Below are positions 3,659-63,710 of a stretch of DNA of 64,000 nucleotides, in pieces. A program made the translations under genes and the position numbers. Under the pieces are notes generated by a model. The model was given only the letters and a program-made list of their open reading frames with translations. It was not told the origin of the DNA and ran no database searches. Within the stretch, counting starts at the first letter, position 1. The number at the start of each line of letters is the position of its first letter. The DNA comes from Lingula anatina (taxonomy: Eukaryota; Animalia; Brachiopoda): positions 6,448,001 through 6,512,000 of the forward strand of contig CM120645.1 in assembly GCA_051362555.1 (NCBI GenBank). Reading direction: 5' to 3'.

Positions 3659-3659
3659 G

Positions 3660-4060: not shown

Positions 4061-4149
4061 GTAGCTGGATTCACTGTGATCGATACGTGTTGTGTGATTA
4101 TGTATATTTATGAATTGTGATTTTGGGTGCTTGGTGTCAAATTGGATTG

Positions 4150-4340: not shown

Positions 4341-4806
4341 ACAGAGTGGTGCATCTTGTTTGACGTAACAAAGTCTTTTGTTACTATTAGTTGTTATTGC
4401 CTTAGATTTTAAATGTAACAATCTACAGTATTAATAAGAGCTAGTGGAAACAGGGTCACATGTGACATTGCATTTGTTTTGTTAGATATGTCTGATATGT
4501 TTTGCACACGATACCTAGTTTCTTTTGACCTAAGTATGATGTATAGTTATGTAATTGATTGAACATATTATTACGAACACCTCAAAATGTATGATTTATT
4601 GCCGTGTATTAACTATAAAATAGAGTGCTTGCAAATCAATAATAAGTATTTGTTACATAGGTGCTGTCAATAATACAAAAAAAAAATTAATGAAACCAGG
4701 CACTTGATGTGTTAGTTGTGACTGTGCATGGTTTATGTACTCTAAGCAAGCCACAGATTGAATTTTGTTTTTTTTTTCATGTAATTTTGTTCTCTCATTG
4801 TTTTAG

Positions 4807-6995: not shown

Positions 6996-7218
6996 GTTAG
7001 TCAACTGACATCATGACAGTACATTTCTCTGTTTGGCACACTTTTTTTTCCACTTAAAAAGTATAAAAGTTTTGTGAATTTTTTTTCTTTTTTTGTGTGT
7101 TTAAAGTGAACCACATTAAGATATTTTGCCCAAAATTTTATAGGCTAGTAATAACTAGTTCCCAAATTATTAGTCCCACCAGTGATAGATTCATACAGTA
7201 CTTGGATTTATTTTTCAG

Positions 7219-7590
7219 GAATGATAAGAAATTCTACAGAGTAGAGGTACTGGGGATGAGGTACGAGACCAGTTCAGATACTGAAGAGTCCCAATCCACC
7301 ACCGCTTCTAGTACAGATGATACTCCCAAGTGCTGTGCTGTCAAAGTTCTGTACATAGACTATGGCAACTCGGAGTGGATCCCACGAGAATATATTTATC
7401 CACTCCCGCCAAAATTCTTTGGAATTCCACCACTGGCTTGGCGGTGTAACCTGGCCGATATTTCTCCAGTGGAGAACAGAGATGACCAGCAAGAGATTAC
7501 CCAAGATGGATGGGGATATGAGACTGTCAAAGAGTTTGAGAAAATGACTGGTTACAATGATGTGCTGCTGGGATACATAGTTGAGCCCTT
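7219..7590 (+). CDS. Tudor gene coding exon 8 (eTudor-2: KFYRVEV...KVLYIDYGNSEW...PPLAWRCNLADI)
   Basis: tttcag| acceptor, CCCTT|gtgagc donor, phase 2 to 2. Confidence 0.92.
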
Positions 7591-8125
7591 GTGAGCAAAT
7601 TTGATATCTTTGCGGGGTGGATACAGAGATATTTTTCTGACAGACTTCTTAATTATCTTTGTTGATCCATCCTACATTTTTGACCGTCTTCCGACAGAAA
7701 AAAATAGATACCCGTCAATGTAAACTTGAAAATCAAGATCAAATTTTGCTTAAAAAGAGTTTTGTGTTGATGGTGAAGAATGATCATTACTTTTCCATGA
7801 AACTATGTAAATGACTTCTATTTCAAAGCGCAGAGGTAGATTTATAACTAGAAATTTTAATTAGGATATGTTCGATATGTTGGAAGAATTGCCCATTCTG
7901 GATGTGATTTCCAGAGAGATTTTCAATATAGGATCTTTGACCAGAAATCTTATTCTGACAAAAGCACATCCCCAAGCTTGTTTTGGAGACATTAAATTCA
8001 CAGAAAGTAGGTGTCATAACATTAATTCCATCAACATATATTTACACCTTATATGCATTGACAATGTTTGAAATATTTCAGCAGTAAGGTTTGACTCAAG
8101 AAAACCAATGACTTAATATTTTTAG

Positions 8126-8241
8126 CCCCACAAGCAGCAAGCAGTCCTTACACTTGATACTGTTGAACTCAAGTGGACCAAGTGATGTCTGGGTTAATGG
8201 GGAACTAGTGAGAAGAGGACTGGCCAAGTCTGAAGTCTTTG
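8126..8241 (+). CDS. Tudor gene coding exon 9 (end of eTudor-2: DVWVNGELVRRGLA)
   Basis: ttttag| acceptor, TTTG|gttagt donor, phase 2 to 1; typical N-x-x-L-V-x-x-G-L-A SN-fold terminal helix. Confidence 0.88.
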
Positions 8242-8287
8242 GTTAGTATGGATAAAGATTGTGTTAGATGTGTCAGTGAGGCAGCAT

Positions 8288-8790
8288 TATGTTTGACAGT
8301 GTATGTCATTATTGTGTTTGATGTGACAGTATATGTCAACATTGTGTTTGGTGTGACAGTGTATGTCAACATTGTGTTTGGTGTGACAGTGTATGTCAAC
8401 ATTGTGTTTGGTGTGACAGTGTATGTAAACATTGTGTTTGGTGTGACAGTATATGTCAACATTGTGTTTGGTGTGACAGTGTATGTCAACATTGTGTTTG
8501 GTGTGACAGTGTATGTCAACATTGTGTTTGGTGTGACAGTGTTTGTCATTATTATGTTTGATGTGATAGTTTATGTCAATATTGTCTTTTGTGTGATAGT
8601 GAATGTTAACTTTGTGTTTGGTGTGATAGTCTATGTCAGCATTGTGTTTGGTGTGATAGTCTATGTCAGCATTGTGTTTGGTGTGATAGTCTATGTCAGC
8701 ATTGTGTTTGATGTGATAGTCTATGTCAGCATTGTGTTTGATGTGATAGTCTATGTCAGCATTGTGTTTGGTGTGATAGTGAATGTTAAC
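8288..8790. repeat. 30-bp minisatellite, about 16 copies (GTGACAGTGTATGTCAACATTGTGTTTGGT)
   Basis: Direct tandem periodicity; explains the spurious ORFs at 8205-8985. Confidence 0.95.
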
Positions 8791-9361
8791 TTTGGCCATG
8801 GGATGACAGCGTGTAGCACATAAGATAAGTTTTTGGTTCCTCAGCATTTTACAATAAACATTTTGGTTTGGTATGATATGTATACAAAACAAAACACACC
8901 AGGTTGTATTTAATTTGAAACTGTAAAACACATAACATAATATATATATATATATATATGCTTGGTATTGATATATGACAGTCATGCAGCATTATGTTAA
9001 GCTGGTGATATGGACTATAATGTTGTGTTACAAAATGTAAAACGACATTTTGTTAGGCGTTACAATGTTTAAGAGGTAACATTTTATTATGGGAACAATG
9101 ATCATGTACATATGAATGTGCATGTGTGAGAAAGATATCATTTTAAAAACGTAATATGGACTGTGTTAAATGGTTAATGAAATGGAGTGTGTCGCTTTTG
9201 GTGAGAAATTTTCAGTATAGTGTATAAGGTTTCTTCAGATCAGAGACATTACTTTTGAGTATGGCAAATCACAATTTTTTTTTCTGTTGCACCAAAAAAG
9301 CTTTAAAAAAATTTAATGAATATAATACATTGTTAATAAATTTAATACATTGTTTTTACAG

Positions 9362-9580
9362 GCAAAGAACAAGCACAAAAAGCAGAGGATATCTTGATGG
9401 AATCAGAGCAAAGTGTAAACCCTGGAGAAAATAATAATGCTTTGGCCCCCTTGGAAAAGAGGAGTGAGAGCCCCACAGCAGAACTGCAGAACTGGGACCC
9501 CATGGTGGAGGATCATTTATCCAATAGAAACACGTATGCCATAGATCCAGATGACCCTGGGGTAGCCACCACTGGACACG
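9362..9580 (+). CDS. Tudor gene coding exon 10 (WDPMVEDHLSNRNTYAIDPDDPGVATTG motif)
   Basis: ttacag| acceptor, CACG|gtaaga donor, phase 1 to 1. Confidence 0.88.
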
Positions 9581-10239
9581 GTAAGAGTGTGCATGTGCAT
9601 GTGCATGTGTAAATGTGTATGTAAATGTCTGAGTGAATATGTAAATATGTGTGTGCATGTGTATCAGACATTTTGAAAACTCTGGAAGAACTACTAGTCC
9701 TTTGCTGGTATTTCATACCAGTGTAACATGAAAATCTGACTCCCGCAGTCAAAGTTACGTAATAGGTGACTGGCAACCACAGATTGCTGCTGGTCCTTTT
9801 TATTTTCACCTGCTCCAAAATTTCTTGGAAAAGTTATCTATGAAGACATTTTTCTGTGTATGGGTTTAAAATCCAGCATACAAGATGGAAGGATTTTATT
9901 TCAAAATTTTCATTGGTTCCGAACTCTTTCTTTTGACATTGGTCTATTTGCCTAGCTGAAAATTTATATTGATTCAGAAGTAATTTGTCTGAATAATTTG
10001 TTGCTAGTCAGTCAGTTCTGCTTTAAAATGGGAAAATCCAACCTTCTGACCTAATATATCGAATGGACAACCAAAGAAAAATAAAGTGCCCAGAATATGA
10101 GTTTTTTAACAATGCAAACGTTATTGTTAATGATTCAGTTATATTGCACATTACACTTGACATTGAATCAACATCTTAATAGTATTGACCCAGCTGGTTT
10201 TGTAATAACCCCATGGCACATGGCAATTCAATAATCAAA

Positions 10240-36764: not shown

Positions 36765-38816
36765 ACAGATTTTCTCAAACTGTAATTGATATGAAAGGCA
36801 TTACACAAGCATCCCATACTTCATCTGGAAAACACTTGTTTAATGGATAATTCAGAGATTTTGTTGACTTGTCTTTCCTCAGTTTAAAAAAAAGTAATTT
36901 ACAATAACTATTTGATCAAAGGTATCTGGTACTTTACAAGGTACATGTGTACCAATTAAGACTGATGTGTTCAGTTATTATTTTAAGATGAGTGAAAGTA
37001 ATGGTATTGAAAAGTAACAATATTTTATCTGTTATTTTGTTGAAATTTCTACAAATTCTGAAACCCAACTGCATAGTACCCCTTGTTACTCATGTATTAA
37101 AATACTGGATATGTTTTATTTAGATTGTCTCAAGAAAATATATTTCTAAATAATGATTTGGTGTCATGTAAGGATGTGGATTGATACTGTTGTTGCAATT
37201 ATATATATCGGATGAAACACGCATCATACAAAAATAGGATTTTAACTTCTGGTACCTTGGCTCAAGATAAAGCTGATAGTTAGGAGGAGATTCTGAATGG
37301 ATTATATTAAGGTTTTTCCAAGTAACAGAAATGATATGCAGATTATTCTACTTGATCCAGATCAGTAGTATTTCATTTTGATGAATATCTGGATTTTTTG
37401 CAGATGTATTTTTTAGTTTGGTTAATAAGATTTTACTGCAGGAGACTTAATTAAGTCTGTGCATTGCTCTCTGGCAGGAGGTTAAGCCACTTATTAGTTT
37501 TAAGCTAGAATTTAAGCCTTGAGCCAGAACTTAAAATCCCTAACTTTTTTTCTTTGATTTAGAGCCAGAAGTTAGAATTGCTGACTTTTTTCTACTTAAA
37601 ATAATTTTTTCTGGCTTTTATGTATCTTAATTTAGTTATTTGGCTATAGAAATTTTGTTAAATCACTATTAATGCATGTTAAAATTATTGTCAGTGATGT
37701 TACATTGTCATATCATGTTTGTTACACTCAGTTCATATGCAGATAAGAGATTATAAAGTAAGCTCTTGATAAGCTGAGTCTTTGGTCTTGCATAGTTTCT
37801 ACCTAGAACTTTCATTGACCTTTTTAGTCTGTTGTGAATATATCACATTTGGTTTCCAGTATGACCTTTTAATGAAGTTCTGTCATGAATCTTAATAGTT
37901 TTAAGTTAATGATTGTTATCAGGATCATGTATCCAAAAAGTTTTTTTTTAAAGATATTCATATTTAATACCATTTATTCACATTTTTTTAATAACTGAAA
38001 AGCACATTAGACAGCAAACTATTGAAGAGAATCCCAATCTCCCTTTTGTTTGATAGAAAGTTGTGAGATTTTTATTTTGTGTGGCCCATTTCCACATTGT
38101 TTTAATACTAATGAATGCTCTGTTGACCTGTTAAACTTTGAAATCAAAAATGTCACCCAGAATATCTTTCTCAGAAAAATGTAATCCATAAATAAAGTGC
38201 ATTCATATTTTATCATTTGTACCTGGTAACATGCATTTTGCGATTAGTTAATATCAAGCTATGTATTCCCATCTTAAATGACAGTTTGATGGGCAAGTAT
38301 GAATAATTATAGCTTGGTTCCTAGAAATTTGACAAAATAAAGTAAATGCCAAAGATGCGTGCTTCTGATGAGGCAAACAAATAAAGACAATTTTAGCTCA
38401 CACAATGAATAATTCATTTTATTGCCAGTATTGTGCGTGTTGAGAAGTTTGATCTTTGTCATTTTGTCTCTATATATACATGAATCTTATCTTGTTTTTG
38501 CACTTTTTCAGGTTTCCATTTGTACCATTGTGCAGTCAACTCGGAACATGGTGCCGTTTGATACAGTAGACTACGTAATCAGCCTTGGGCTTGTGAGGCA
38601 TTGGCAATGAGTTTTTAGCAGACGACAGTTTTTCATTTAACTGTGAGGTCAACTTTGACAAGAACGCAGATTAAATTGTTATGAGATATGCTTCTGAAAA
38701 TCAGAACACCAAGTATATGGCCAAGGAAGGAACAAGTTATTTGAAATTTTTAAGCATTGCAACAGCTCTTTGAAGATGTGTTGAGAGCACTGCGCTTCAA
38801 TCTCTGTGCTAGAGCT

Positions 38817-40610
38817 ATGCTCAACACCACGCCCACTCAAGCATTTAGCAAGACAAGCCTAAGACATTTTCCAAACAGTACTGTTTTAACAACATGGAGT
38901 GCAGAATTGCAGACTACTGACTCATTTGGTAATGTTTTTGTTGTGAATACATCTTTTTTCAATGACTCTTCGGTGGGGTTCAGCACATTGGATTTGGACA
39001 ATAAATCGAATACTGGCAGAAGCAATATTAGTCATCAACAAGAATTTGGTTCTCTGGAACAACAGATCGCTGGGATTGTTTTACTGGTGTTTGCAGTAGT
39101 TGCAGTTGTATTGAACAGTGCCATTTTAATGGCAGCAAAATTCACAACAGGAGGCCGGAGTCCCACACTTATCTTCATACGCAGTTTGTGCGTGGCGGAC
39201 ATTTTGGCTGGCGTGTTTGGTATCACCAAACATTTTTTCATCCAGTTTGGTGAGGTTGGCAAAAACAATCTTTTCCTTGGAGAAAGTGTGCTGTTTTGTT
39301 CCATGGTTGCTTCCTGTTGCATGGTGCTGGGACTGTCTTGGGAAAGCTATCTGCGCATAGCTTACCCGTTAGAATATGTGAAACATATACAGAAACACAT
39401 TGTGATAGGAACTGTAGTATTCTCGTGGAACTGTGCCTTCGTCTTCGGATTTGCACCTCAGATGGGGTGGAGCAACTCGGAGAATTACTCCTCTGAAAAA
39501 TTCTATGAATTCTATACCTATTCTTACTTGATCTCATTCGTAATTGCCTATTTTGTGTTTATACTGATTACTGTGGCATTGCATTTGAAAATTAGTGCCT
39601 TAGTGAGGCAACTACAGAAGACTGACCATCACTTGGCTCAGTTTAGTAGAGAATGTAGGCGGAGTATTAAATTTGTCAAACTGACAGTGGGAAATGCAAT
39701 TATTTTATTTATATCCTATACGCCATTGCTCATGTATATACTGTTACGCGTTGCTACCAATTTTTCTGGTTTGACAGAAACTATTCATCTCTATCTATAT
39801 CCAGGGGTTTTGTTGAAGTCTGTGGCTTCACCATTACTAAATGGCGTAAACATCAAACAAATCCGCCATGTTTTGGCCGACTGCTGCCTAAGACTTATTC
39901 TGAGACGTTTCACTGGAACTAGTCTGCAACATCGGAAATTCCATCAGAATTCCTCATCGTCCTCAGCCTCTTTATCCATTGTCAGTCGCAAAAGTTCCAC
40001 ACAAGAGCACACAAGTACTCATTCAAATGGAAAAGCTGGCAGCAGCATATACACCATACCTCACTGCGATAGTTATAATGAAAACATTGAAGGTGATGGC
40101 ATATTGACTAATGGTCGGATGAGGTCACAAAGTTTATGTTTATCCTGTGATAGGCCAAATCCTAATCGTCTGCAGGTTTCGCAACACAGATGCTGCCATC
40201 GTTCTGTGTCAAACGGTACCTTGCAGACTGAAGTATCACTTAGCAGTTCAGGTAGTGATATTGGCGCAGCTTTGTCAATAGCAGTACCAGAACAGTTGAG
40301 TGGAAAAGACAGCTATGAAAAGGGGTTAAGACGGAACAAGAAACATCACTCCTCTGACAACAGTATTCAGTCGTATACTCCAAAAATAAATAGTTCCAAA
40401 TTAGGATCTGTAGATAAGTTACCAGTTCACGGGACCAATTCAGATAGTGCGTCATATAATAAGTCGTCTCGCCCCAAGCGTAGGGTCAGTTTTTCTGACC
40501 TGCTTTCTTACCAGGGAGATTCCACAGTTATAGTGCACAAAACTCTGGCATCTGCTTGTAGTAACTTACCCCTAACAAGTAATGAAATCATAGAAGAGAC
40601 TCCGCTTTAG
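38817..40610 (+). CDS. Class A (rhodopsin-like) 7TM GPCR, 597 aa, single coding exon, nested in Tudor intron 10; MECA/GPR119-like features, degenerate activation motifs
   Basis: Seven hydrophobic segments; TM1 LN, TM2 SLCVAD, TM3 ESY-x-x-I-x-x-P-L-x-Y, TM4 W...P-x-x-G-W, TM6 SYTP, TM7 SPLLN, helix-8 CC; six N-x-S/T sites in the N-terminus; acceptor tttttcag at 38511. Confidence 0.92.
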   Translation: MLNTTPTQAFSKTSLRHFPNSTVLTTWSAELQTTDSFGNVFVVNTSFFNDSSVGFSTLDLDNKSNTGRSNISHQQEFGSLEQQIAGIVLLVFAVVAVVLNSAILMAAKFTTGGRSPTLIFIRSLCVADILAGVFGITKHFFIQFGEVGKNNLFLGESVLFCSMVASCCMVLGLSWESYLRIAYPLEYVKHIQKHIVIGTVVFSWNCAFVFGFAPQMGWSNSENYSSEKFYEFYTYSYLISFVIAYFVFILITVALHLKISALVRQLQKTDHHLAQFSRECRRSIKFVKLTVGNAIILFISYTPLLMYILLRVATNFSGLTETIHLYLYPGVLLKSVASPLLNGVNIKQIRHVLADCCLRLILRRFTGTSLQHRKFHQNSSSSSASLSIVSRKSSTQEHTSTHSNGKAGSSIYTIPHCDSYNENIEGDGILTNGRMRSQSLCLSCDRPNPNRLQVSQHRCCHRSVSNGTLQTEVSLSSSGSDIGAALSIAVPEQLSGKDSYEKGLRRNKKHHSSDNSIQSYTPKINSSKLGSVDKLPVHGTNSDSASYNKSSRPKRRVSFSDLLSYQGDSTVIVHKTLASACSNLPLTSNEIIEETPL

Positions 40611-44945: not shown

Positions 44946-45450
44946 ATCATCTTTCTCCAATGTGTGTGTGCGTGTGTGTGTGTGCGTGTACATACGTGAC
45001 AAAGAAATTGAAAGGGTGAAATCTGACAGATGTGCATAATTTAAGTATTTTCTTCCAAGCAACTGACTTTAGTTGAATGTTGCAGTTATTTGAGAAAAAT
45101 TCACTGGAAATGGAAGCATTCTTGTTATGTGTCTGTTTTTGTGTACATGCCTTTGTCAGCCCTCAATTTTGTCTACCAGTAAAACAATGATTTATGTAAT
45201 TGATAATTTCCAATCTTCAAAACAGTTGATGAATAATATATATCCTAAAACAATTTTTGTCAATTTTTAAAAGTTTGAATCAATTAATCATGAATTCAAT
45301 TAATTTTTTAATGTATTCATTTTTTTGCATAACTTATTAATTTTTTTTTCATTTTTCAAAGATTGAGTATACTTTTCTTTAGCAAAAATCATGTATCGCA
45401 CTTAATTTTGATTGTTTTTATAGTAATATATTTACTTTTTACATCTCTAG

Positions 45451-45549
45451 CTTCATATGAAGAAAAGATGCCATGCAAATTCTTCATGACCCCAGAAGGC
45501 TGTTGGAGAGGACACGAGTGCCCCTTTCCACATGTGGCTCCTGGGTCAG
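45451..45549 (+). CDS. Tudor gene coding exon 11 (CCCH zinc finger CKFFMTPEGCWRGHECPFPH)
   Basis: ctctag| acceptor, TCAG|gtaaga donor, phase 1 to 1; C-x8-C-x5-C-x3-H; phase-compatible with exon 10 across a 35,870-nt intron. Confidence 0.88.
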
Positions 45550-47939
45550 GTAAGATGTGATAAACAGTCATGATCTTCTTTTATTTGGTACAAGGTTTTT
45601 TATTGGCTGTAACTTCAGATTATTTTGGATTAGTTTAAAGTCCATGAGTTGGTAACCCTCTGTCATCTACTGGGCACAAATTTTCCTTAGCTAGCTGCTC
45701 TACCCTTTACATGGGACACAGTTATTATTATGTGGACCTTTTTGCTAAAGTGACCCTGTAACTTTTGGCAATGTGGAAGCAATTACATTTGTATAGCTGC
45801 GCCAAGTGTAAAAAAAACAGCCCATGGGTGAAAGATTTTATGCAGCTTTTAAGTTATGGTACTTGTTCACAGAGTGCAGTAACAAAAGTAACAGATCTCA
45901 TAAGATGATAGTCAATTTTTAGCTGTTTTACATTGATTTTACATTAATTCAGCTATTCTGAAATTCCCTAATGAAGAGCCAGGGTATAGGGATTTTATGT
46001 ATAAGAGTAGTACGAATCTGACCTCTGTCACCACCCTGAGTATTTAGAAATATAGATCCTGAAAATCCCCTTTGATACGTATTATTATTATATGCATAGA
46101 GGTTAGTTTCTGTTAATCTGTGAATTTTGGGGTACCTAATCATTGGTTTATGACAGAATGATCAAAATTTGATCCATCCAAAGGCATATGCCTCTTTGGG
46201 AAAAGCTTTTGTTGGAATCCAGATGTATTTTGTCTTCTCTCATGACTGGGGGGGGGGGGGGGGGGGGGGGTAATTTTGAAACTGTTGGAGACTTTTTTAT
46301 TTCTCTGTGTAAAAGATTATAAAAGACAAAATGTGAAAAAAACAGGAAATGAAGGGGAGGGGGACCTTTTACTTCTACATATTTTTCTATCCCTGCCTAG
46401 CACTTTCACTGCTTCCTGGCAGAAGAACCCATACAATGTACGTAAGCAATTCCTTTTCAGCATCTGTATTATGATTTTTGTTTTCATTCAGTTCAGCATT
46501 AAAAGAACGTGTTTCATAGGTTTTTTCTTTACTGTCAGTTACAATTAAATGTATCTTTCAGATGAATTCATTTTGATATATACCTCTCAGACTTATAGAT
46601 ACAAGAGACATCCCAGGTTCACACCTACATGTAATTCACCCTTAAATAACAATTTTTTAAACTTGAATTCAGTTACACTTGCATGTTATACATTGTAAAT
46701 GGTCACGCCTTTGTGTTAACAAATCATACCAAAAAATATTTTGACTAGGACAAAGTACCATGACAAATTTGTGTCAAAACAACCAGTTGATTAGTTATGC
46801 AAATGTTCAGACGTGCCAGGATTGTATAAGGCCATCCCCCCTCCCCCCCCCCCCCCCCCCCCCATAATTTTTAAGGGGTCATTGTCTTGTATAGTTATTT
46901 AACTATACCTGTTTGCATAACCATGAATGTATGTGGTAAGGTGAGGTGGCAATATTTCCAATAAAATTGGTCTAAGTGTTAACCTTAACTTGTCAATGTG
47001 TGATGGCAATAAGCCAAGTAAACTGTGGCAGTGGGCCAAATGATTTTCTGCCCAAGCTATTTCATAATTTTTTCTATCATGCCTGTATTTTCTATTGTAC
47101 AACATACCCACCTGTGAATTGTAAGTATCTAGGCTATTAGTATGATTGGATTGTAGAGGAACAATTAATTCGACCATGAGGGAGATATTGTGTGACAAAT
47201 TGATTTTACATAGAGAACATCTGTATGTGCAATTAAAGGTAGTTTCTATGGAAGTGTAGGTGTCATGAGACATATAACTAGCGTGGTGAGCCATCATAAC
47301 TAAAGTCTATACAGTTCAAAGCTATTGTAGGTGAAAATTGCCAGTTTAGTATGTAATAGGAATAAAAGTGGAGTTGGGCTGTTTTTTTCCAGTCTGTGTG
47401 TGTAAGAATGACTTTATTTCAGCTGCTGGCTCATCAGTAATACTCTTTGTCTCTGTTGCCATTAAGTATTTAATGGAAGAGGCTGACTCCCACACTGTAG
47501 ATAAATATAAGGTCGATGGGTATGATAGAAGTCAAAAGAGGATATTTTACCAAGAGTAATATATTCCATGATTGTTTCTGCAAGTTTGTTTCGCTTTTGA
47601 AAAGAACAATTATTGTGTTCATGTGTCTTGTGTGTGTATTGGATGAATTGAAAAAAAGAAAAAAATGGCCCAGACCTTATAGTTGTATTTCTTGAGGACT
47701 AACCACTAAATTGAAATGGCGACAAGGCACTTGATGTGCTACATGATGTTATTTCAAGCATGTTAAAAGTTCCACTCAAAATTAAGCTTATGCATCCTCC
47801 ATTTAGCATTCAATACAAAAAGTCCAAAAATGTTTGCCATGACTGTTCTTTTTTAAATGGATGATGGCCATCTTCTCAAATGTGCACAATATTTAAATTT
47901 TTTCTGTGTAATGATAAGATGATAAGAATATGTTCCAAT

Positions 47940-50383: not shown

Positions 50384-50621
50384 GTGAGTAGAATACTTAA
50401 CAGGTGGCTGTTAACACTCACAAGGTGATAGCTAGCACCAAGAAAGGCTTATAGTTAAGCTATTTTCTAGTATGCCTGGAAATATGTGGAAAATTTTATT
50501 TGAGCATCATCAGTTGCATGTACAATCGTATTCAATAATTGTCAAAGTAAGCCTTGTCCAATGTGTGAAAAACTTGTCCATGTTTCGATGAATTCTATAT
50601 TTTTTTACTAATATTTTTCAG

Positions 50622-50766
50622 TGAAGACTACTCCAGCTCTGTGTACAGAGACACTGACCTAGTGGGTCATGCCTGCGGTGAGATCGTGGTCGCTCAGTTT
50701 AGTGATGATGACCTTTGGTACCGTGCAAAGGTCATTGACACAGACATGGAGAATGAAAAAGTAGAG
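50622..50766 (+). CDS. Tudor gene coding exon 14 (eTudor-3: GEIVVAQFSDDDLWYRAKV)
   Basis: tttcag| acceptor, GAG|gtaaaa donor, phase 2 to 0. Confidence 0.92.
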
Positions 50767-51110
50767 GTAAAAGCTGTATTTTATAAAGATAGGGATAGAC
50801 AGATCACCAAGCTGATTGAAGAGTTCTTATGTGTTGTACAGTCGTGTTTTGTTTAGAATTCGATCATTAGAATATTTCATATTAAATGGAAATTAATGCC
50901 ATGCATGAATATTTTACATTTTATTGCTGCATGCACAAATGTTTGTTTATATGTGATTCCATACCCTTATTAATATTATAGAATTTTACCTTTACTGTAC
51001 ATTTATATATTTATACAGTCATGTTTTAAGAAGAAAGAAAATCCACCAGAGATACTTTCTAGGCATGTGTTTTAAAAAATTAGTTTTAAAAAATGATAAT
51101 CATGTTTCAG

Positions 51111-51496: not shown

Positions 51497-51718
51497 GTAA
51501 GGCTGCAGAACTTACAAGTAGTGTTTCTACTTAATCTGCTAACAGTAGACACTATAATACTTCATGCTTATTCTGTATTTTAATTTATTATGTCATTTGT
51601 CAGAGTAGGAACTAAAGCCAATTATAATTTTGCATTTCTAATCTCCAATAGAAAATCCATTTCCAGTAGCTATTTTCCCCTCAGGTTAAACTATGCAGTT
51701 TTAAATTTTAGGTAGTAA

Positions 51719-54700
51719 CCCAGACAGCCTCAGTGATCTGGCCCACGTCTGGCCCAGATCTGGCAACGTCTGGCAATGTCCGGCAAAAGGTATGGCCCAC
51801 GTATGGCTTGCCACATGTGGGCCAGATGTGGCAATGTTTGGGCCAGATCTGGCCCAGACATTGCCACATCTGGCCCAGTCCACATTTGCTCATATGGCCA
51901 GATGTCGGCCCAGATCTGGCAATATCTGGCAAAGGTATGGCATGCCAGATGTGGGCCAGATCATATTCAAATGGGCCAGATTAGGGCCAGACTTGGACCA
52001 CATATGGCCCAGATTGTTTTTTTTTATTATTTCACATTTGCTCATGTGGCCAGATGTCGGCCCAGATCTGGCAATATCTGGCAAAGGTATGGCATGCCGG
52101 ATGTGGACCAGAAGTGGGCCAGATTAGGGCCGGACATGGACCACATATGGCTCAGATTGTTTTTTTTTTTCTTTTTTTAAATTTTTTTTAAATATTAAAT
52201 AAGATTACTATAAAAAAAGACATACAAGATTCAAGATTCAAGTATTTATTCTGTGCTAAAACCCTTAACAAAATTATTACACATTATATAACCTTGCTGG
52301 CAACTAACATGTAACAAATTAAGGGCCACTCCTTGTCTTTTTGTCAAAACAATGTATGTTTGAAAAAAAAAACTACACTGCAAAAAGGCAAATATACAGA
52401 CACTTAACAGGAGGAAATATCACTTACATACATGTAAAGAAAACAGTTATAACAACAATTTTTTTTTCAACACAAAGCTGCTCATCGAATCTGAATTAAC
52501 ACAAATTACAAAAATTGTAATTAATTATGCATGTACATGGGGGGGGGGGGGAGGGGTTTGAGGGGGAAATATTTTTGCACACCTCAACCTAAATAATATT
52601 ATACATTATCATTTTTAAACTAATTCAAACATATCATTAATAATAATAATCACTAATGAATATAGTTTTGTAATGAATAAATCTTGAAAAATGAATGAAA
52701 AAACATTGTCTTTTAGATGATGGAGAGTTATAACAAAATTATAAATAACCATGCAGTAACTGTTTCAATTCAACTTGCATGATGGCTACAGTACTGTACA
52801 TACATGTTAATTCTGAAAAAAAATATGTATACTCCAGCACAGATATAGATGTACAATTAAAAGAGAATTACATGTGCACAAAAACAAACCCCAGTATCAA
52901 TGCTTTTGAATTTAATCACATCACGAATCAAATCACTCAATGAATTGAACCAGTTTGCAATGCTTGCGCTTTTTTCAAATCCATAACACTAAGAAATGAT
53001 ACTCCTTGACAAGCTTATAATTATTAAAGGAATCAACAATGGAACAAGTAACTCTACCAAGTTAACAACAGTTCATTCAAATGTCAAGTCAAAACACAAC
53101 ATCCCTTCCTTTCTTGGAGAGAAACGGTCCTTTCAAAACATGTTAATTGACAGTTCAGTCTTTAAAATGTCTTTTCAAACATTTGCAGAATAGCATATGA
53201 ACTCCAACTTTTATTCCTTAAACCACACTGAAAATTCTCAAAACTAATCAACTCATATCAAATCCCATGTCCTTTCACTAATACTGGTCTCTTCCTTTGC
53301 TTGCCTTTATGTCACATTCAAATGTTCCCTTCACTTTTAAAGGTTTCTCAGACGTGTATGAATAATACTGTTTTTTGTTCTGGTCTTCCACAAGAGCCAC
53401 ATTTATTTTTCTTCGATTTCAGCATTCTCCATGTATTTTCATCAATGATATTACAATATGCACCTGAATCTGGTAATACACTGAGATTAACACCTCCTCT
53501 ATTTCCTCCATGTCTTCTGTGTATATTGCATTGGTTCCCACACCAAATGTATATGCACTCCTGGATTATCATGTTCAAAGCTGTCATTTACATGAATAAT
53601 AGTTTCAGTTTTGCAGACTTTTGCAAAGTGATCCAACGTTCCATGTTTTCTCAGTCAGGGAGTTTCTACTTCGTTTTTCATGTCTAAACTCGTAATGTTT
53701 AGACTGGCTTGGTTTGTCAAATGACTTCGGTTTCATCATACTCACAGTTTCTGGTGTTCCAATTTCATTCAAAGCGTTAACTGTCTTATGTATATTCATG
53801 TTTCTAACCTGTGGGAGTCCTGAAAATATCTTGTACACCTGTCCCTGCTGAATACAACATAAGCGCGCGTCTCCTCTGTCATGTATTTTTAATTTTCTAT
53901 CTTTGTTCATTATTCATGCCGTCCGTTGGTTTTGAAAAGATCAATCTTTTCCGTCAGCGAAGAGGTTAAAACTGTCAAGCCATCCCGTCGAGCGTGACCC
54001 TAATGTCTCCGGTGTCACGTGAAGAAACCGTCGTCGTGAATAAACCGTTCTGACGGACCACACCGGACTTCTGTACGGTTCGAATTCCGTAATTTCACAT
54101 TTTTCCTCCATTTTTTCAAAGAAAGTTGGCTCACAGTTTTGCACTAGTGTTAATCCTCGTCGCCAGTGTTGATGCCTTCGAAATAAATCGCATCACGAAT
54201 CAAATCACTCAACGAATTGTATCAGTTTGATACGCTTGTGCTTTTTTCATATCCACAACTCTAAGAAACGCTACATCCGGGTCCTTGATCGGCTTAGCAT
54301 AAAAAGCGGAATCTTACAACAGCGGAACGAGTAGTTCAAAAAAGTTTTAGAACAGTGAATTAATTCAAATGTCAAGTCAAATTAAACAAATAGCACACTT
54401 ATGAGGGGACTTTGAAGAAAAGACGAGAGAGATCAATTAAATCAAAATTTATCAAATGACGTCAGTTCAATGCATTCAGCTCACTGGTCAATAAAAAATA
54501 AATAAATAGAAAATAAAAATTGAAAATGAAAGTACCATATCTGGCCCAAGTCTGGGCAGCATCTGGCAAAATGTGGCATAAATGCCAGACTTTGCCAGAC
54601 TTGGCCCAGATCTGGCAAGTGTCTGGCAAAATGTGGCATAAATGCCAGACTTTGCCAGACTTGGCCCAGATCTGGCAAGTGTCTGGCAAAATCTGGCCCA

Positions 54701-54762
54701 GATATTGCCAGACGTTGCCAGATCTGGGCCAGACGTGGGCCAGATTACTGAGGCTGTCTGGG
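51719..54762. mobile_element. Non-autonomous CMC/EnSpm(CACTA)-like DNA transposon, 3044 bp, in the last Tudor intron
   Basis: 59-bp TIR CCCAGACAGCCTCAGT(G/A)ATCTGGCCCACG... with 1 mismatch; AA on both flanks (2-bp TSD); dense subterminal CTGGCCC/GCCAGA repeats at 51719-52155 and 54535-54762; no transposase ORF. Confidence 0.8.
52895..54388 (-). mobile_element. Decayed, internally deleted Ty3/Gypsy LTR retrotransposon inside the DNA transposon
   Basis: Diverged direct repeats at about 54167-54388 (5' LTR) and 52895-53101 (3' LTR); PBS TGGCGACGAGGAT (54153-54165) matching the tRNA-Ser(GCT) 3' end; PPT AAGAAAGGAAGGGA followed by TGTTG (53102-53115); frameshifted gag relics (WLDSFNLFADGK; QRRRALMLYSAGTGVQDIF) and a protease relic (LPDSGAYCNIIDENTW). 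Confidence 0.82.
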
Positions 54763-55000
54763 AAATTATTTATATCTACACCTTCTTTCTTTCCTCTGTT
54801 TTAATGTGAAATTCAATGGTGAAATTCAATTGAAATCCTCTCATTGCACCCTGAGATTCAGAGTTTACTAGAAACTCAAACACCTCTTTTTACTGGAAAT
54901 GTCAGTGCCTTGGATATATACTGATGAAAGAGATCAGGTGCCAGTAAACGCAATTGTCTCCTTGGCCCATCTTTCCAATTTGATTGCTCTACATTTTCAG

Positions 55001-56466: not shown

Positions 56467-58939
56467 TATCACTTTAACAATATGTTGACGGCTACAATAT
56501 GGTATATACCACCTAGCAAAAGACTATTATACAGGCTATTCACTGCAGAAATGAAACATTGTGGCACAGATGCACTGTATTAGGTAGGTTTTTAAGACTA
56601 TGGTACAATTATAATTACAGTATACTGCCCAGAATACAACTTCTAAATGGTACAAAATACTTCAATAACAAATTCACTTTGGCACATGAAAGGGATGGAT
56701 TATATTTTTTTTTTTAATATTAAAGACATGGCTCCTACTATAACTGACATCAAATATGGACTTTCATTAAAAGAATTTTTTTCAAGCATCATTTTCTATC
56801 ATTTAGGAAGAATTATTTCAAAGTACTAACCTTCCACATAATACAAGCAAGTAATCATACCACCAACTTGACCCTATAGACAACATTCTTCAAATTAAAA
56901 AAAAATAAAGGTATTTACACAAGTTCCATGATCAAACAAAAGAATCAGAAATATGCATAAAATACAGGAAGTATAGCATGTAACAATGAATACATTTTAT
57001 TTAAGTTGAGGGAAACTTATTGCAGGAAGTATGATTAGATAAAATATTTTTTTAACAAAAAAAAAAAATACTGGGAATTGTGTGGATAGCAATAAAACCT
57101 ACATGGTAAGCTACAGGTTATGCAAAAATAAGTTTTTTTTATTTCTGTATACCTTTATACTTCATGTATGTCTTTTTTTTTAATTCTTTTTTAAATACTA
57201 GACTGGCTATCTGAATATCTATAGTTAATGTGTAGAAGCTGTAAAATTTACACATTATTGCTATTTACATGCATAACTTGTCTAGCAATAATGTGAACTT
57301 AGTAAATTAATCTATAATCCTTTCTTTGACTGGATACCTATAAAACGCGATCGACTATATTTAATTTTTTGTACAAAACAAATGATCATCTTAAGAAGCA
57401 ATCATCTCTCCAAGTCATCCACAACTGTCTAATTTAAATAATGTTATTTTAAATGGCAATCTCTAATATAAAGTAACCTACCTACACCCGAGGCACAGAG
57501 CATTGGAAAGGACTCTCTACTGCCTGCTGGTTACAGGGTAGAGTGCCCAATTAACTCTGCCACACAGGGTGCCCATAATGTACCTAAGTTGTCTAAAAAT
57601 CTTTTTCCTTTTTTTATGCAGCTAAAACTCCACAATACATTGGAATTGAGGTATAATTCGGCCTAAGACAAGGATACAACATCTATCCTGGTCTTGTAAT
57701 GCTTCCTGGTTTCTCTGTGTGTGCAAAAAATACCGATTGTAGAATGTTACCTTATTTTATTGTTTCTATCATACCCATAACTACATGTACATTGCAGTTC
57801 CTGACAGCCGAGCCAATATATCTACATCTAACTTTTCTCAAATTAATGTCACAGATTCAGCTGGCCCTTAGACTTTTAAAACCACTTCATCCAAGGCTAC
57901 ACTACAGTTAGTGGTTTAAACACCCTTACCAGGAATTGGTTTGCCTTGTCGTTTTCAACCTTTGACTTTGGCCATATATATCAATAGTATCTAAGAAACC
58001 AAGGTCAGATATCTAAAGGTCAAGGTGGGATATCTGAGGGTTCAAGGTCAGAGGTTCTACACAGAGGGATGGTTACAATGCTGAACTGCTGCTTTACAAT
58101 CAGATAACATCAGAAATACATGTTACTGTAATTGGTATATTGAAGTTATTATAGAAGTATTTTACATAATAGTTTTTACAAAAGTATTAAGAAAAAAAAA
58201 AGGTTTCGTATAGCAAAACAACTTCATCCTGATTCTTAGTTCTCATGCAATCTTCTCATTGTTGGCATTTAGACATTTTACACTAACAAATGACATCAGA
58301 CAACAAGTAGCCTCACAACACAAAGCTGTTTCATTGCATTGGTTTTTTAATTATTATAATTATACTCACAAATTTCAAAAACATTACCCACACATCCCAT
58401 TTCAAGCATCGTAATATTCTGTTACTTAAAAAAGGAATAAAAATATTATTCAAGCTAAAGTCAGTTTTTTTTTTCATGAAATATTTCAGTACACATAAGA
58501 AAAAATTATTCATTCTGAAATAATGCAACTTCACAATATTTTGTGAGAGAGAGTACAGTTCAATTTTCGAATTACTATTCTACCATAAAACAACAGTTTG
58601 TCTTACACCAACAGTATGACCTTTTTAATTTGCAATTGATTTAAATTCCTAGTAATAATCTTAAGTTTTCTTTCAAATAAATTTGACTTCTAAATTCTTA
58701 TGAGGCAGAATATGAAGGAGTTTGTGTTCTTTGCTTAAAATCACTTGTTTCACTACAAACTTCCTTATATTTGTTTGCCAGCTAGAAAATATTACTTAAA
58801 CATCCAAGAACAATTCTCTGGTGACCAAATAAAGCTATTTTTGGACGACCTTATTTATTTTATCTGCTTGCTTATACTTGATGGCAGAATTGTTTCTTAA
58901 TTTAAAGTTTAAGGTACATGTATATTTGGACCTCATTAG

Positions 58940-59188
58940 CTACAGTTTAGTATCCTCTACCTCCGGTTGTTCAAGTTCTTCTGGGCTCAGTTCTGAGATG
59001 GGTACTACCCATCCATTGTTCTTCTCATCATCATCTGCAATAACATTGCCATTTCCATTGGGTGTCACTGCAGGGTTCGCCTTTTCTAACATAGGGGCTT
59101 CATCCCTGGTAATCTCCTCATCTGGTATGGGGTTCTCATGTACCTCCTGCAGGGGTTTCTTAGTGCCTGCCTCCAAGTCACCATCATC
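58940..59188 (-). CDS. Podocalyxin/CD34-like sialomucin, last exon (cytoplasmic tail ...HENP...MLEK...NGWVVPISELSPEELEQPEVEDTKL*)
   Basis: gttag| acceptor, phase 0, TAG stop; class I PDZ-binding end DTKL. Confidence 0.85.
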   Translation of the reverse strand, partial: DDGDLEAGTKKPLQEVHENPIPDEEITRDEAPMLEKANPAVTPNGNGNVIADDDEKNNGWVVPISELSPEELEQPEVEDTKL

Positions 59189-59619
59189 CTAACATAATAT
59201 TAAATTGTGACTTTGTATCAATGCCTTGATGTTTTAGGTATTCTGTTTCATTTGATTTTTTAAAGATTATATGAGAAAATTCAATAAACGAGTATTTTTT
59301 GTTGTAAGAGGTTTTAAAAACTAACAACAAGAATACCAATTTGTTATATTTGACTGGATTAAGTTTGATTTAGCTAAGATGCGACTGCTCAGTGAAGCAG
59401 ATCAGGAATTGGATGTGCTAGGTTTAACTGTGTCAGATTTAATTGTGTTGAGATGTGACTTAAATATTTAATCAAGATTTGGCAAGAAATGTATTTGGTG
59501 TGACTGTCAGATTTGCTTGCATCAAGATTTGACCATTCATTAAATCGGGGGTTTTGGAGAAATGTGCTTAGTGTAAATGTGTAAGGTGTAAAATTGCTGA
59601 GCTGTGACTTTCTACCAAC

Positions 59620-59865
59620 CTTAAGGTAGCTCTTGTCCCTCTTCTGACAGCATCTGCATCTGCAACATCTACGGCACTTGAGCCAAATAATACCAACTAT
59701 AATCACCACAATACACACACATGCCAGAACTGCCATGGCAATAAACAGTCCCATATGGGCCTCCAGGGGGGTCAAACGGCCACTGGCAGCCGCTGGTTTG
59801 GGTGCCGTAGTCGGGTAGAGGTCATTAGGTAGGCCAGCATAAACATCCGTCACATTCAGATTAAC
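59620..59865 (-). CDS. Podocalyxin/CD34-like protein, transmembrane exon (GLFIAMAVLACVCIVVIIVGIIWL then KCRRCCRCRCCQKR)
   Basis: ttgcag| acceptor, AAG|gttggt donor, phase 0 to 0; single TM helix with a basic, Cys-rich juxtamembrane segment. Confidence 0.88.
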
Positions 59866-60030
59866 CTGCAATACAAAACATGTGACTGGTAAGAGCGACT
59901 TACAATGATATTTACAGCTTTATTTTAACAGTTAGTTTCTGTTAGTCCCATCATTTAAAATGTTCTCTTAACACAGACCAACAAACCTCTTTTGGTCATT
60001 CCTATCAAAGTACAAATCAAAAATGTTTAA

Positions 60031-60268
60031 GGCACCATTCCCATACACCCCATTGGTCTGGGTAGATTGATGTGGCTCTGTGGGGACTCTTTCTGAATGC
60101 AGTCAGTTTAACAAATTAACACACTTCTCCGGCATTAAATAGAATACAGAAAAGCTGGTGAATGAAACAACAAGAGACTTGTCTTTCAGTTAAGATGAGT
60201 GCACTCAGCAAAATCCCCAAAGATTGGATCAATATACATAGACCAATGGTGTCTGTTGGAATGGGATC
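60031..60268. mobile_element. MITE (CCATTCC-type TIR) in an intron of the podocalyxin-like gene
   Basis: About 40-bp imperfect TIR (CCATTCCCATACACCCCATTGGTCT / AGACCAATGGTGTCTGTTGGAATGG); interior shared with about 31425-31500. Confidence 0.6.
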
Positions 60269-60366
60269 AAACTCTGTCACACAGATCTGTTTTTCTCAAG
60301 TTAACATTTGTTAAATCTCTTACAAATAATTATTGCTTCTCAAGCGTTCTTGTTTTGGTCACTTAC

Positions 60367-60443
60367 TTCCTTTTCTAATCTCCGTTTGTTTTCTAGCTGT
60401 GATAATAGATCCAGAAGTTTACCTCTTGGAAGTATTGTCTCTC
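60367..60443 (-). CDS. Podocalyxin/CD34-like protein exon (GETILPRGKLLDLLSQLENKRRLEKE)
   Basis: taaag| acceptor, GAA|gtaagt donor, phase 1 to 0. Confidence 0.8.
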
Positions 60444-60750
60444 CTTTAATTAACAGAGCAATGGTGCATAATAGCTTTAAGCAGTAAGTACAAAGTTATA
60501 CAACCTTTCATAGGTAATATATGTTAATAATTATTATAAATATTGTTTAATATAAATAAATGTATAACAATACAAAATACTTCAAACCATTCCCACAGTT
60601 GGTCATGTCATGCAGATTAATTTTACAACTGCATAACAGTGATCAAAAGACCAAGGAAATTAGGTTGGCTCCCTACATGTAGAAATAACAATCACCCTGT
60701 TAATAAGTTTTTCAATGTCTCACTCTAACAAACTTTCACAACTTTCTCAC

Positions 60751-60949
60751 CTGTTCCATTCCTATTCCTGATGTATACAGCCACTTCCAACTCCCCATTC
60801 TTGTTCACCCTGGGCGTGGGATTAACAATGACTATGTCATCTAAATCCAACTTGTCACCATCTGCTCTCTTGCGTCTGCTCCTTGACTGATCTTTGAAGT
60901 AGTCGTTCAAAATGGCCAACAAGGCCAGGCGAAATTGTTTTGCAAAGTC
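60751..60949 (-). CDS. Podocalyxin/CD34-like protein exon (SEA-like globular domain with RSRRKR furin-type site)
   Basis: ttacag| acceptor, ACAG|gtgaga donor, phase 0 to 1; DFAKQFRLALLAILNDY...DIVIVNP...LEVAVYI alpha/beta pattern. Confidence 0.85.
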
Positions 60950-61101
60950 CTGTAACTGAATTGAAATTTTGATAAAAAAATAAAAAGTTAGTTAATTTTG
61001 TCATTAATATTGCTCTATAGGATATATATTAATTTAAGATTCAGATTTGAAGTGTTATACAGATCTTCTGAAATGTCTAGTAAACATATATACATTCATT
61101 A

Positions 61102-61242
61102 GGGGGGCCGTAGCAATAGTCCAAGGTTCATTGTTCTGGATGTTCACTATAGAACCTTTGGACCAATGAACCCTTGATTAAAAACGGATAAAAATGTTAC
61201 CATTTTTTGGACCAATGAACCTTCAGACTATGGGGACGCACC
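61102..61242. mobile_element. Small decayed MITE with inverted ATAGTC..AAGGTTCATTG motifs
   Basis: ATAGTCCAAGGTTCATTG at left versus CAATGAACCTTCAGACTAT at right; GGG...CCC ends. Confidence 0.5.
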
Positions 61243-61358
61243 CTCATCAGGCAGATTATCAAAACCAATCACCATTTACAAACCAGCCAATCGTACCCTT
61301 ATGTTCTGCCAATTTTTCATCTAACTGCTCCCAACACAATGTCATGTCCCATCCACCA

Positions 61359-61577
61359 CACTCCAATTTAATATCTTGTCACAGCCATCATACTACCTCG
61401 CTTTATCTTTACCACACCTAACACAATCTTGCATTTCATACTCAGTCACATCTAACGCACTCCAATTTAATATCTTGTCACACCCATCATACTACCTTGC
61501 TTTATCTTTACCACACCTAACACAATCTTGCATTTCATGCTCAGTCACATCTAACGCACTCCAATTTAATATCTTGC
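61359..61577. repeat. 99-bp tandem repeat, about 2.2 copies
   Basis: CACTCCAATTTAATATCTTG recurs at 61359, 61458 and 61557. Confidence 0.9.
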
Positions 61578-61599
61578 CACACATAAAAAACTGCCCTAC

Positions 61600-61704
61600 T
61601 TTGTCTTCATCTTTATCTCCATCATATGCAAATACAGTTGTAATCACTCCATCTTCCTGCTCTTCAGTCAAGTCTTTTGCCTCTGCTGTTGGAGGGGCTC
61701 CAGT
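61600..61704 (-). CDS. Podocalyxin/CD34-like protein exon (TGAPPTAEAKDLTEEQEDGVITTVFAYDGDKDEDK)
   Basis: tttcag| acceptor, AAA|gtaggg donor, phase 0 to 0. Confidence 0.8.
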
Positions 61705-62361
61705 CTGAAACAAGCCAAAGTAATGTCAACTTAACCTAAGATCTAATAAACGGATTAGATCTTAGACTTAACAAAACAATCTTAATTGAGATAATTTTCA
61801 GTAATGTATTTTACATATTGTTATGCCTTTTTTTGTTTGTTTGTGTGCCCACTAAGATAATATGGTTGCCTTTAAAAGTAAAAGATTTCTTCTTTTCAAC
61901 TTCTTTAAGATGATGTAATATTAAAAATATTAGTAATATTTAAAAAAACATTATCTGCCTGTATTTTATTTGATAAAAAAGTGCTTCAGGTGTGAATTTT
62001 TGTGTTAAATTGTTTATCAATTGTGCTCAAGCATGCAATGAGAGTTCATCTGTTCAGCATTCAAACAGATGTATAAGTGCTGTAAGTGGAAATAAGCCCA
62101 GGATTGAACTGAAAAAATGATAACGTCACTGCAGATGAATGTTTTCAAATAAAATTGATGCTGAAGAAGATAAATTTCTCAAATATCCTAATCAAATCTC
62201 ACCAATTTGCATAAGAAGTGGGTTCATGCAGAATTTAGTCAAACAAGCCATTGTAAAATCAAAATCATTCTTTATGTCATTATACAAGAATATCAATAAT
62301 AAAAATCATAACAAAGTTATAAGTATTTAAGTTTTTAATTATACACACAAGTTCTGCTTAC

Positions 62362-62438
62362 AGTAGCTGCCAATGTTGTCTGTTCAGAAGATGTGGTAAC
62401 TGCCTCTGTTGTCTGGGTTGCTTCAGTGGTCTCTTCAA
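62362..62438 (-). CDS. Podocalyxin/CD34-like protein mucin exon (VEETTEATQTTEAVTTSSEQTTLAAT)
   Basis: tttcag| acceptor, ACT|gtaagc donor, phase 1 to 0; Thr-rich. Confidence 0.8.
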
Positions 62439-63632
62439 CTGAAAAACATATCACATGCCATTTCAAAGAGAAGCAACTGCTTAATCCAGGCAGACAGTTT
62501 TCTTATTCAAAACGTATCTTTTGGGTCTTCAGGTAAAATTCAGACCTTTTCCGTGTATGTATACAACTTTCTAAACAGTTATTATCTATTGATATTTCTA
62601 TTGCACAAGTTGACAGTTGTGTATATAAGGCTTTTTTTAAGCATTAAAGGATAAACATCTTTAATTGGACATGGCAATTCTAACTTTATCATGTGTTCTG
62701 GGGCCTCTTTGACATATACAAGTATAACAGTATATTTTTCCCCACTGGCCAAATAATTGTTCATTTTAGACCAGGACATGGATATATCTATTTTCTCTTG
62801 TTCATCAGCTCTAATTAACTAGCTTAGAATTGTTATACTGATCAATAATCAAGGAAAGTCACCAAGTTAAACTACAGGACACAAAGTTGACCTCTTTGCC
62901 CAATATGGATTGACCAACAAAAACTGACCACACTGACAAAAATATGCCAAAGAGACCCTGTACATTTCCAAGACTATACAGATATGAGGATTTTGATTTA
63001 GTAAACAGTGCTGACCAGCGGTCAGGATTTCTGTCAGATTTTCAACTTTGGGGGCATTTTGGCTCATACATCTGTAGGTTCTTATATAACCAAAAAATAA
63101 GACCCCTTCAAGCTGTTCTGAAAGAAACCCCTCTGACTCGGGCAGTATCAGTAGGAGTGCAAACAGATGAGGCAACTAGGTAGTGCAGCTATGATTTTAG
63201 TAATTGACGTATTGTATGTGAAGATTAGACTCTTAACTTTTTTCATTTGTATATAACAAATAGCTTTGTGACTGATAACAATTATGTACATTTGGCAAAA
63301 GACTTAAATTTGCCCAAAGTATACCCTTGAAGAAACATTCCTGTCTATAGTCTAATCTACTTTATTCAAGTAACTATCAGATATATACTATGTACTCATC
63401 TATAGTGATTAGTTCTATTCAGAAATGTCACTTTTTGACCTCTGCGTACATGTACATGCTGCCTTTCAAAAAAACCTCAGAAGTTGGGTATATAAGACTT
63501 TTCCGCTCCATTTAAGTATCACATAAAAGCCTCTAGGCTCTAGCTGCCAGTGGAGCCTCAATGCACTGTGTGCCATCCTACCTATCACCTTGGTCTTGTT
63601 GGGCACCTCGGGCTTCTTGCTGTTCCTCTTAC

Positions 63633-63710
63633 CTGTGGTGGTCTCAGGGGCAGGTGTTGTGATGGGGCCAGCCACGCCCTTCTGGGCCACACTTAACGTC
63701 TCTCCTGGGC
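63633..63710 (-). CDS. Podocalyxin/CD34-like protein mucin exon (GPGETLSVAQKGVAGPITTPAPETTT); gene continues beyond the window
   Basis: attcag| acceptor, ACAG|gtaaga donor, phase 1 to 1. Confidence 0.78.

Follow-up and report, generated by a model that had tools for sequence, protein, structure and literature searches.

The minus strand of a 64,000-nt stretch of Lingula anatina DNA (the window; contig CM120645.1 of assembly GCA_051362555.1) carries, between positions 58940 and 63710, the 3' part of a gene for a mucin-type membrane protein. An initial annotation had read it as a deep invertebrate homologue of the CD34/podocalyxin/endoglycan sialomucins. The results described here indicate that the gene belongs to an animal family that very probably shares an ancestor with the CD34 family and that likely predates vertebrates. 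Two features that define the vertebrate proteins, a disulfide-bonded globular domain and a Pfam score above cut-off, fail in Lingula; the gene is therefore classed as a likely pro-orthologue of the CD34/podocalyxin family at the bilaterian level and not counted among its textbook members.

On the minus strand, seven exons bounded by canonical AG and GT dinucleotides can be spliced into one reading frame of 343 codons and a stop (Table 1). Their phase-consistent arrangement, initially proposed from the letters, was borne out by RNA reads, which cross all six introns as CT..AC joints in runs X15 and X18 (from the last intron to the first, 24 and 26, 15 and 42, 3 and 26, 15 and 29, 20 and 27, and 9 and 20 joint reads, respectively). 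Stranded run X15 shows that the transcript originates from the minus strand. The transcript is readily visible in two of the three RNA runs, the third (X12) giving few reads. Also present as originally described are the Thr-rich segments, a single transmembrane (TM) helix, the Cys/basic juxtamembrane stretch and the tail motifs. The reads place the acceptor of exon 4 at 60955, which adds residues LQ; an acceptor at 60949 was discarded, as it is not among the joints listed and the reads favour 60955. A second donor, at 63582, is in use (7 reads in X15) and adds 17 residues to the first window exon.

The gene runs past the end of the window. Its exons here correspond to the 3' part of L. anatina XP_013416967-9, annotated as 'mucin-17-like' or 'GPI-anchored protein pfl2', and the database entry is longer by 538 residues at the N terminus. 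Its layout is signal peptide, trefoil, mucin, D8C, mucin, SEA, TM and tail; N-terminal and TM helices are predicted, and the Ser+Thr fraction is 0.34-0.36 in two ectodomain blocks. The trefoil domain scores 25.9 bits in Pfam (cut-off 21). D8C was assigned by precomputed annotation and was not listed in the Pfam scan of the whole protein run here; it aligns with the D8C of family members from Owenia, Mytilus and Haliotis (E values from 1e-12 down to 1e-16, within a small set of sequences). Uromodulin and GP2 (D8C, PF23283) and the trefoil factors (PF00088) share these two domain types, which are N-terminal in Lingula and in some lophotrochozoan relatives. Unlike uromodulin/GP2, the Lingula protein has no ZP module detected in the Pfam scan and does have a TM helix and a tail.

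The cytoplasmic tail, of about 100 residues, ends in ...EVEDTKL* at 58940. All three RefSeq isoforms end instead in ...ELDNRR, which corresponds to a neighbouring frame of the window. No coding indel occurs in the tail exon in any of four read sets (two sets of DNA contigs and two RNA runs), and a further contig spans the exon without a gap; DTKL* is therefore the supported protein end. The possibility that DNRR represents an alternative splice form or a common allele gained no support, neither a joint nor a coding indel being found in four of four runs. A one-letter variant at 58970 lies in the very codon where the RefSeq end departs and was seen in two runs (window 58943-58975, minus strand). 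This variant, together with the lack of an indel, suggests that the DNRR end is an assembly error at a variable site. The annotation is thus corrected: a PDZ motif backed by the reads is missing from the RefSeq models. The tail exon shows 17 read variants, of which 15 fall at third codon positions and 14 are synonymous. This exon is under purifying selection, a pattern beyond chance.

Relatives were collected with HMMER, using the SEA+TM+tail region as query against 1.84 billion representative proteins (E<=0.001). The search yielded 34 proteins, namely the query and 33 relatives. Names are carried by nine of the 20 relatives looked up: Owenia, Tubulanus, Mytilus, Haliotis, Tachypleus, Acanthaster, Ptychodera, Branchiostoma and Ancora sagittata. 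The phyla represented comprise an annelid, a nemertean, molluscs, a chelicerate (horseshoe crab), an echinoderm (starfish), a hemichordate (acorn worm) and amphioxus; vertebrates, insects, nematodes and cnidarians are not among the named relatives in this sample of 20 out of 33. The Ancora record (P0005, P0037-P0039) comes from a protist transcriptome. Ancora is a gut parasite of polychaetes, and the record is therefore read as likely sequence of its animal host. Word-based homologue searches, which retrieved the Lingula protein alone or three invertebrate proteins, missed relatives that HMMER later found, so that their blanks mean little.

Complete tails were available for 23 proteins, the window's and those of 22 relatives, and the other 11 relatives were left out (P0050, a cluster mate of the Tachypleus proteins, seems to be unrelated and was set aside). 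Within the family, conservation is highest in the tail. Every one of the 23 closes with a class I PDZ motif, which takes the form [DN]Tx[LF] in 22; NG is found in 22, [EDS][NS]P in 20, MxE in 19 and W[VI][VIF]P in 17. Conservation of the WxVP and DTxL motifs among invertebrate relatives, which the initial annotation had made a touchstone, is thus observed. The HxNP motif held in part, its core being kept as [E/D/S][N/S]P and its H not being conserved. Tails of the three deuterostome members (amphioxus, starfish and acorn worm) end in EDTHL. These three have a plain signal-mucin-SEA-TM-tail layout, with no trefoil or D8C found by Pfam; several lophotrochozoan members have one or the other domain. 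The Tubulanus isoforms P0017 and P0055 diverge just after the TM, one having a 16-residue cut-off tail and the other a full DTKL tail; CD34, too, has a splice form with a truncated tail. Six single-exon tail fragments (P0008, P0009, P0011, P0012, P0014 and P0022) start after a Phe/Leu-rich stretch ending in Q. Judging from these sequences, their starts are as expected if a phase-0 acceptor preceded the tail exon in relatives too.

Ties to the CD34 family were found with the Pfam profile CD34_antigen (PF06365, cut-off 26.3 bits), a check put forward in the initial annotation. Amphioxus P0019, retrieved from the Lingula query with E 4.3e-7 over SEA+TM, scores 26.8 bits as a whole protein and 29.3 when trimmed; P0051 of B. 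lanceolatum scores 35.3 bits over TM+tail. No other Pfam family is seen as often in the alignment members as CD34_antigen (6 of 18 at E<=1), and automatic annotation already assigns PF06365 to one amphioxus protein.

A vertebrate gene was compared directly. L001 is the one locus obtained when metagenome contigs were searched for two podocalyxin motifs given in the initial annotation; CD34_antigen scores its last exon at 60.5 bits, and from its likeness we take it to be a fish podocalyxin. Two profiles were used: A2, made of 18 rows, and a second one of 10 rows lacking the three EDTHL-ending deuterostome rows. The TM+tail of L001 scores 43.6 bits with A2, with which the best of 177,635 PDB sequences reaches 27, and 33.9 bits with the 10-row profile. 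Because L001 had been chosen by motif, the TM and both search motifs were kept fixed in shuffles; none of 2500 reached either score. When the search motifs were masked, the score was reached by 0 of 2500 shuffles with A2 and by 9 of 2500 with the non-EDTHL TM+tail profile. Five tail motifs align in order between Lingula and L001 (NP, MxEK, NG, WxVP and EDTxL, with a class I PDZ end in both), and tail-only hhalign probability is 75-80%. These data bear on the possibility that the Lingula protein is an independent invertebrate SEA mucin, of KIAA1549-, dystroglycan- or MUC-like grade, whose short acidic tail came to carry podocalyxin-like motifs by converging towards shared PDZ and trafficking adaptors. 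As convergence would have it, NHERF-type motifs of the DTxL form are generic; yet the match survives masking of both search motifs, the curated CD34 threshold is exceeded by amphioxus members, and the tails of the deuterostome members share the EDTHL end of podocalyxin.

The exon layout was compared as well. Lingula and L001 both have a last intron of phase 0 that follows the TM by 10-20 codons, with the tail on a last exon of its own. However, the start of the TM exon differs, lying about 39 codons before the TM in Lingula versus about 6 in L001. Moreover, phase-0 introns commonly follow TM exons, so that the shared phase, found in the intron comparison that the initial annotation had suggested, offers weak support. 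Vertebrate CD34-family genes have eight exons according to PMC2193439; the Lingula gene has seven in the window and more beyond.

The globular alpha/beta module noticed in the initial annotation is predicted to be an SEA domain. AlphaFold, given a 17-row alignment, models a beta-alpha-beta-beta-alpha-beta domain followed by the TM helix with a mean predicted local distance difference test score (pLDDT) of 75.6 (75-96 by block over residues 1-130). Folding of the whole protein without an alignment gave a pLDDT of 36, too poor for structure search. Top matches of the domain model in a wide structure search were PCDH15 MAD12 (Z 10.2), Nup54 (9.8), CELSR1 (9.4), IA-2 (8.6) and MUC16 (7.2), and Foldseek agrees; these proteins and KIAA1549 share the SEA fold with the model (Z 7-10). 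For human PODXL residues 322-461, a predicted model has four strands and three helices (PMC12922080). The overall architecture is that of podocalyxin (PODXL), endoglycan (PODXL2) and CD34: type I, a mucin stalk leading to a globular alpha/beta module, then a single TM and a tail rich in acidic residues.

Several observations weigh against membership of the CD34 family. CD34_antigen does not match the Lingula protein in single-exon or whole-protein scans, and no protostome-type member exceeds its cut-off, which only amphioxus P0019 and P0051 pass; the profile check thus spoke for the amphioxus relatives and not for the Lingula protein itself. No protein identified as vertebrate turned up in the HMMER search, in which 20 of 33 relatives were looked up, or in the word-based searches. 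The comparison with podocalyxin involves a single vertebrate locus, over TM+tail only, and this locus was picked with two of the motifs. A tail-only profile gives L001 18.5 bits, a score reached by 23 of 2500 motif-fixed and 0 of 5000 full shuffles, and an unrelated intein reaches 18 bits against the same tail. The amphioxus tail alone does not match the non-EDTHL (protostome-type) tail profile (2.8 bits, a score reached by 361 of 5000 shuffles); amphioxus therefore joins the family by its SEA+TM. The Lingula SEA region contains no Cys, as is the case in 11 of 15 SEA regions of the family, whereas the vertebrate CD34-family globular domain is cysteine-rich and disulfide-bonded (PMC2193439). 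Lingula further differs from the CD34 family by a furin-type site inside this domain, the extra trefoil and D8C, more exons and a cysteine-rich juxtamembrane stretch. Finally, the ESM Atlas, whose scores are flagged as leads by the tool, puts collectrin at the top of the list for Lingula (0.91) as well as for amphioxus (0.93); CD34 comes in at rank 16 (0.83) and rank 4 (0.89), respectively. Deep homology to podocalyxin is thus supported by motif conservation, the amphioxus PF06365 scores and a TM+tail match beyond shuffles, with the missing CD34_antigen match and Cys-less SEA domain of Lingula on the other side.

The collectrin ranking agrees with other comparisons of the ectodomain. The best PDB match of profile A2 is ACE2, at residues about 628-793 (E 2.5e-5), with identities along the SEA elements; ACE2 chains for which the match covers SEA positions only score 15-18 bits with A2. 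In a second structure comparison the ACE2 neck tied for first place (Z 10.5, root-mean-square deviation 2.3 over 103 residues); ACE2 was not in the top 50 of the wide structure search. Pfam Collectrin (PF16959) gives no match with the Lingula protein and is seen below cut-off in 2 of the 18 alignment members (best relative 16.9 bits, cut-off 27.1). Collectrin (TMEM27/CLTRN) and the ACE2 neck thus share with the family an SEA/ferredoxin-like domain followed by a TM, which in ACE2 covers residues about 615-770, and the Lingula SEA domain is at least as close to collectrin/ACE2 as to the CD34 family.

One could then view the protein as mainly a relative of collectrin and the ACE2 neck, whose SEA+TM would dimerise and escort SLC6 amino-acid transporters to brush borders, the podocalyxin-like tail being a shared ancient, or a convergent, apical anchor. 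We find this quite improbable. No CD34-family chain was found in the PDB searches, so that ACE2 may win by default, and the SEA domains of PCDH15 and Nup54 tie with it in Z. Tail-only profile A4 lists no full-length ACE2 chain of the PDB at E<=10, and the podocalyxin TM+tail scores about 16 bits above ACE2 with the same profile. Unlike ACE2, the Lingula protein has no peptidase domain, and it has a long mucin stalk, which collectrin is not known to have. Altogether, collectrin/ACE2 is favoured by the ectodomain, for which the PDB offered no rival structure from the CD34 family, and podocalyxin by the tail.

Convergence from another SEA mucin draws some support from KIAA1549. Pfam KIAA1549 (PF12877, cut-off 24) scores 11.8 bits on the TM exon (E 0.076) and appears in 2 of the 18 alignment members, with a best E of 0.0027; Lingula itself has no CD34_antigen match. 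The loop after the first SEA helix contains RSRRKR, which, to judge from its sequence, is likely to be cut by furin, and the consensus R-x-[KR]-R is present in 6 of 15 family SEA regions. A predicted furin site so placed recalls KIAA1549, in which furin cleaves the SEA domain nearest the membrane and the stalk is O-glycosylated (PMC13570299); protease sites are described as often housed in SEA-like domains (PMC6586460). On the other hand, KIAA1549-like proteins have tandem SEA domains and a long tail; the Lingula protein has one SEA domain, not three, a short tail and sub-threshold KIAA1549 scores. Set against the masked-motif and amphioxus results, independent origin of the tail appears more improbable still than a mainly collectrin-like identity.

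We regard as fairly probable the joint proposal that the Lingula gene is a pro-orthologue of CD34/podocalyxin/endoglycan and that its product acts as a tethered glycocalyx. The single-pass mucin would hold a glycan brush on the cell surface, as CD34, podocalyxin and endoglycan do, with O-glycans extending the stalk into an anti-adhesive spacer. The DTKL end would bind an NHERF-type PDZ domain and so bring in ERM proteins and actin on the apical side of the cell; ERM binding may be aided by the basic juxtamembrane stretch, whose cysteines may be palmitoylated. Furin would cut the SEA loop, the two halves staying joined until shed. An apical glycan spacer, tethered to actin via a PDZ adaptor and ERM, is envisaged because each anatomical part is present and the tail is what the family conserves best. 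Comparable steps are documented for vertebrate podocalyxin, whose DTHL end recruits NHERF-1 and whose ectodomain drives microvilli (PMC1796660); ezrin binds directly or via NHERF, and the glycosylated ectodomain widens apical surfaces (PMC1796660 and PMC8227556). Loss of podocalyxin blocks foot-process formation, the protein being essential for podocyte foot processes in mice (PMC2193439).

The trefoil and D8C, as lophotrochozoan add-ons, may bind mucus glycans or microbes in a lectin-like or decoy fashion, consistent with the functions ascribed to such domains. This leads to a different view of the protein's main job: a podocalyxin homologue that in lophotrochozoans would mainly serve the gut, lophophore or epidermis as a barrier mucin that is shed. 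Cleavage by furin and sheddases would free its trefoil/D8C/mucin ectodomain to bind mucus and act as a decoy for microbes, and filtration cells would have no particular need of it. The above-cut-off trefoil, the D8C shared with Owenia, Mytilus and Haliotis, RSRRKR in the SEA loop and a transcript readily seen in two of three RNA runs all suit a barrier mucin, which is compatible with the homology claim and differs in the main job only. However, the tail is best conserved and under purifying selection, and an intracellular tether is therefore favoured; the barrier role seems to us somewhat unlikely as the main one.

Table 1. Features of the Lingula mucin gene in the window (positions in window coordinates)
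Feature	Position	Strand	Evidence and remarks
Thr-rich stalk, first window exon, phase 1 to 1	63633..63710	minus	reads; upstream exons (signal peptide, trefoil, mucin, D8C) beyond window
Thr/Glu-rich mucin exon, phase 1 to 0	62362..62438	minus	in-frame join and reads
End of mucin stalk and first SEA strand, phase 0 to 0	61600..61704	minus	reads and predicted fold
SEA helix 1, basic loop, strands 2-3, phase 0 to 1	60751..60955	minus	reads and predicted fold
RSRRKR, predicted furin-type cleavage site in SEA loop after helix 1	60866..60883	minus	sequence
SEA second helical segment, phase 1 to 0	60367..60443	minus	reads and predicted fold
SEA strand 4, short stalk, TM helix, Cys/basic juxtamembrane segment, phase 0 to 0	59620..59865	minus	reads and predicted fold
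TM helix	about 59748-59680	minus	within exon 59620..59865
Cys/basic juxtamembrane segment	59679-59620	minus	within exon 59620..59865
Last coding exon: cytoplasmic tail with ENP, MLEK, NG, WVVP, PDZ-binding end, stop	58940..59188	minus	reads
C-terminal DTKL, class I PDZ-binding motif	58943..58954	minus	sequence and reads; not in RefSeq models
3' untranslated region, transcribed to at least 57500	57500..58939	minus	stranded run X15; 57500 is the edge of the stretch covered

Introns of the gene contain a tandem repeat at 61359-61582 (99-bp unit, 2.3 copies, 96% identical), the unit of which resembles the adjoining exon end plus donor. Two very high-copy intronic repeats, at about 61087-61297 and 60032-60242, have reads on both strands and opposite-strand joints and are likely small transposon relics. 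Elsewhere in the window, exons for a CCCH zinc finger and for Tudor domains, of which four fragments exceed the Pfam cut-off, are found on the plus strand at about 2180-9600, 45333-45560 and 50569-50856; they likely belong to one or two Tudor-domain genes running towards the 3' end of the mucin gene. Between Tudor exons, a single long open reading frame at 38754-40610 (plus strand) encodes a rhodopsin-family G protein-coupled receptor (7tm_1, 58.5 bits), possibly nested in an intron. Copies of a repeat family lie at 51705-52180 and 54462-54804, with long open frames on both strands.

Literature searches, which were ranked and non-exhaustive, retrieved no paper describing an invertebrate or protostome podocalyxin, and the available parts of PMC2607016 and PMC5787515 mention podocalyxin for vertebrates only. 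The CD34 family is described from vertebrates; a family with the same tail in protostomes and deuterostomes provides a named candidate gene. It also links the SEA domains of the CD34 family and of collectrin/ACE2 to one invertebrate family. A farther-reaching idea, which we consider rather unlikely, is that the family represents the common ancestor of podocalyxin and collectrin, and that the single-copy genes descended from it in living invertebrates are markers of their filtration cells (podocytes and nephridial terminal cells), supplying the missing glycocalyx component of an ancestral ultrafiltration toolkit. The candidate gene raises a testable question, namely whether the podocalyxin glycocalyx and its NHERF-ERM link were part of an ancestral filtration or lumen-forming toolkit.

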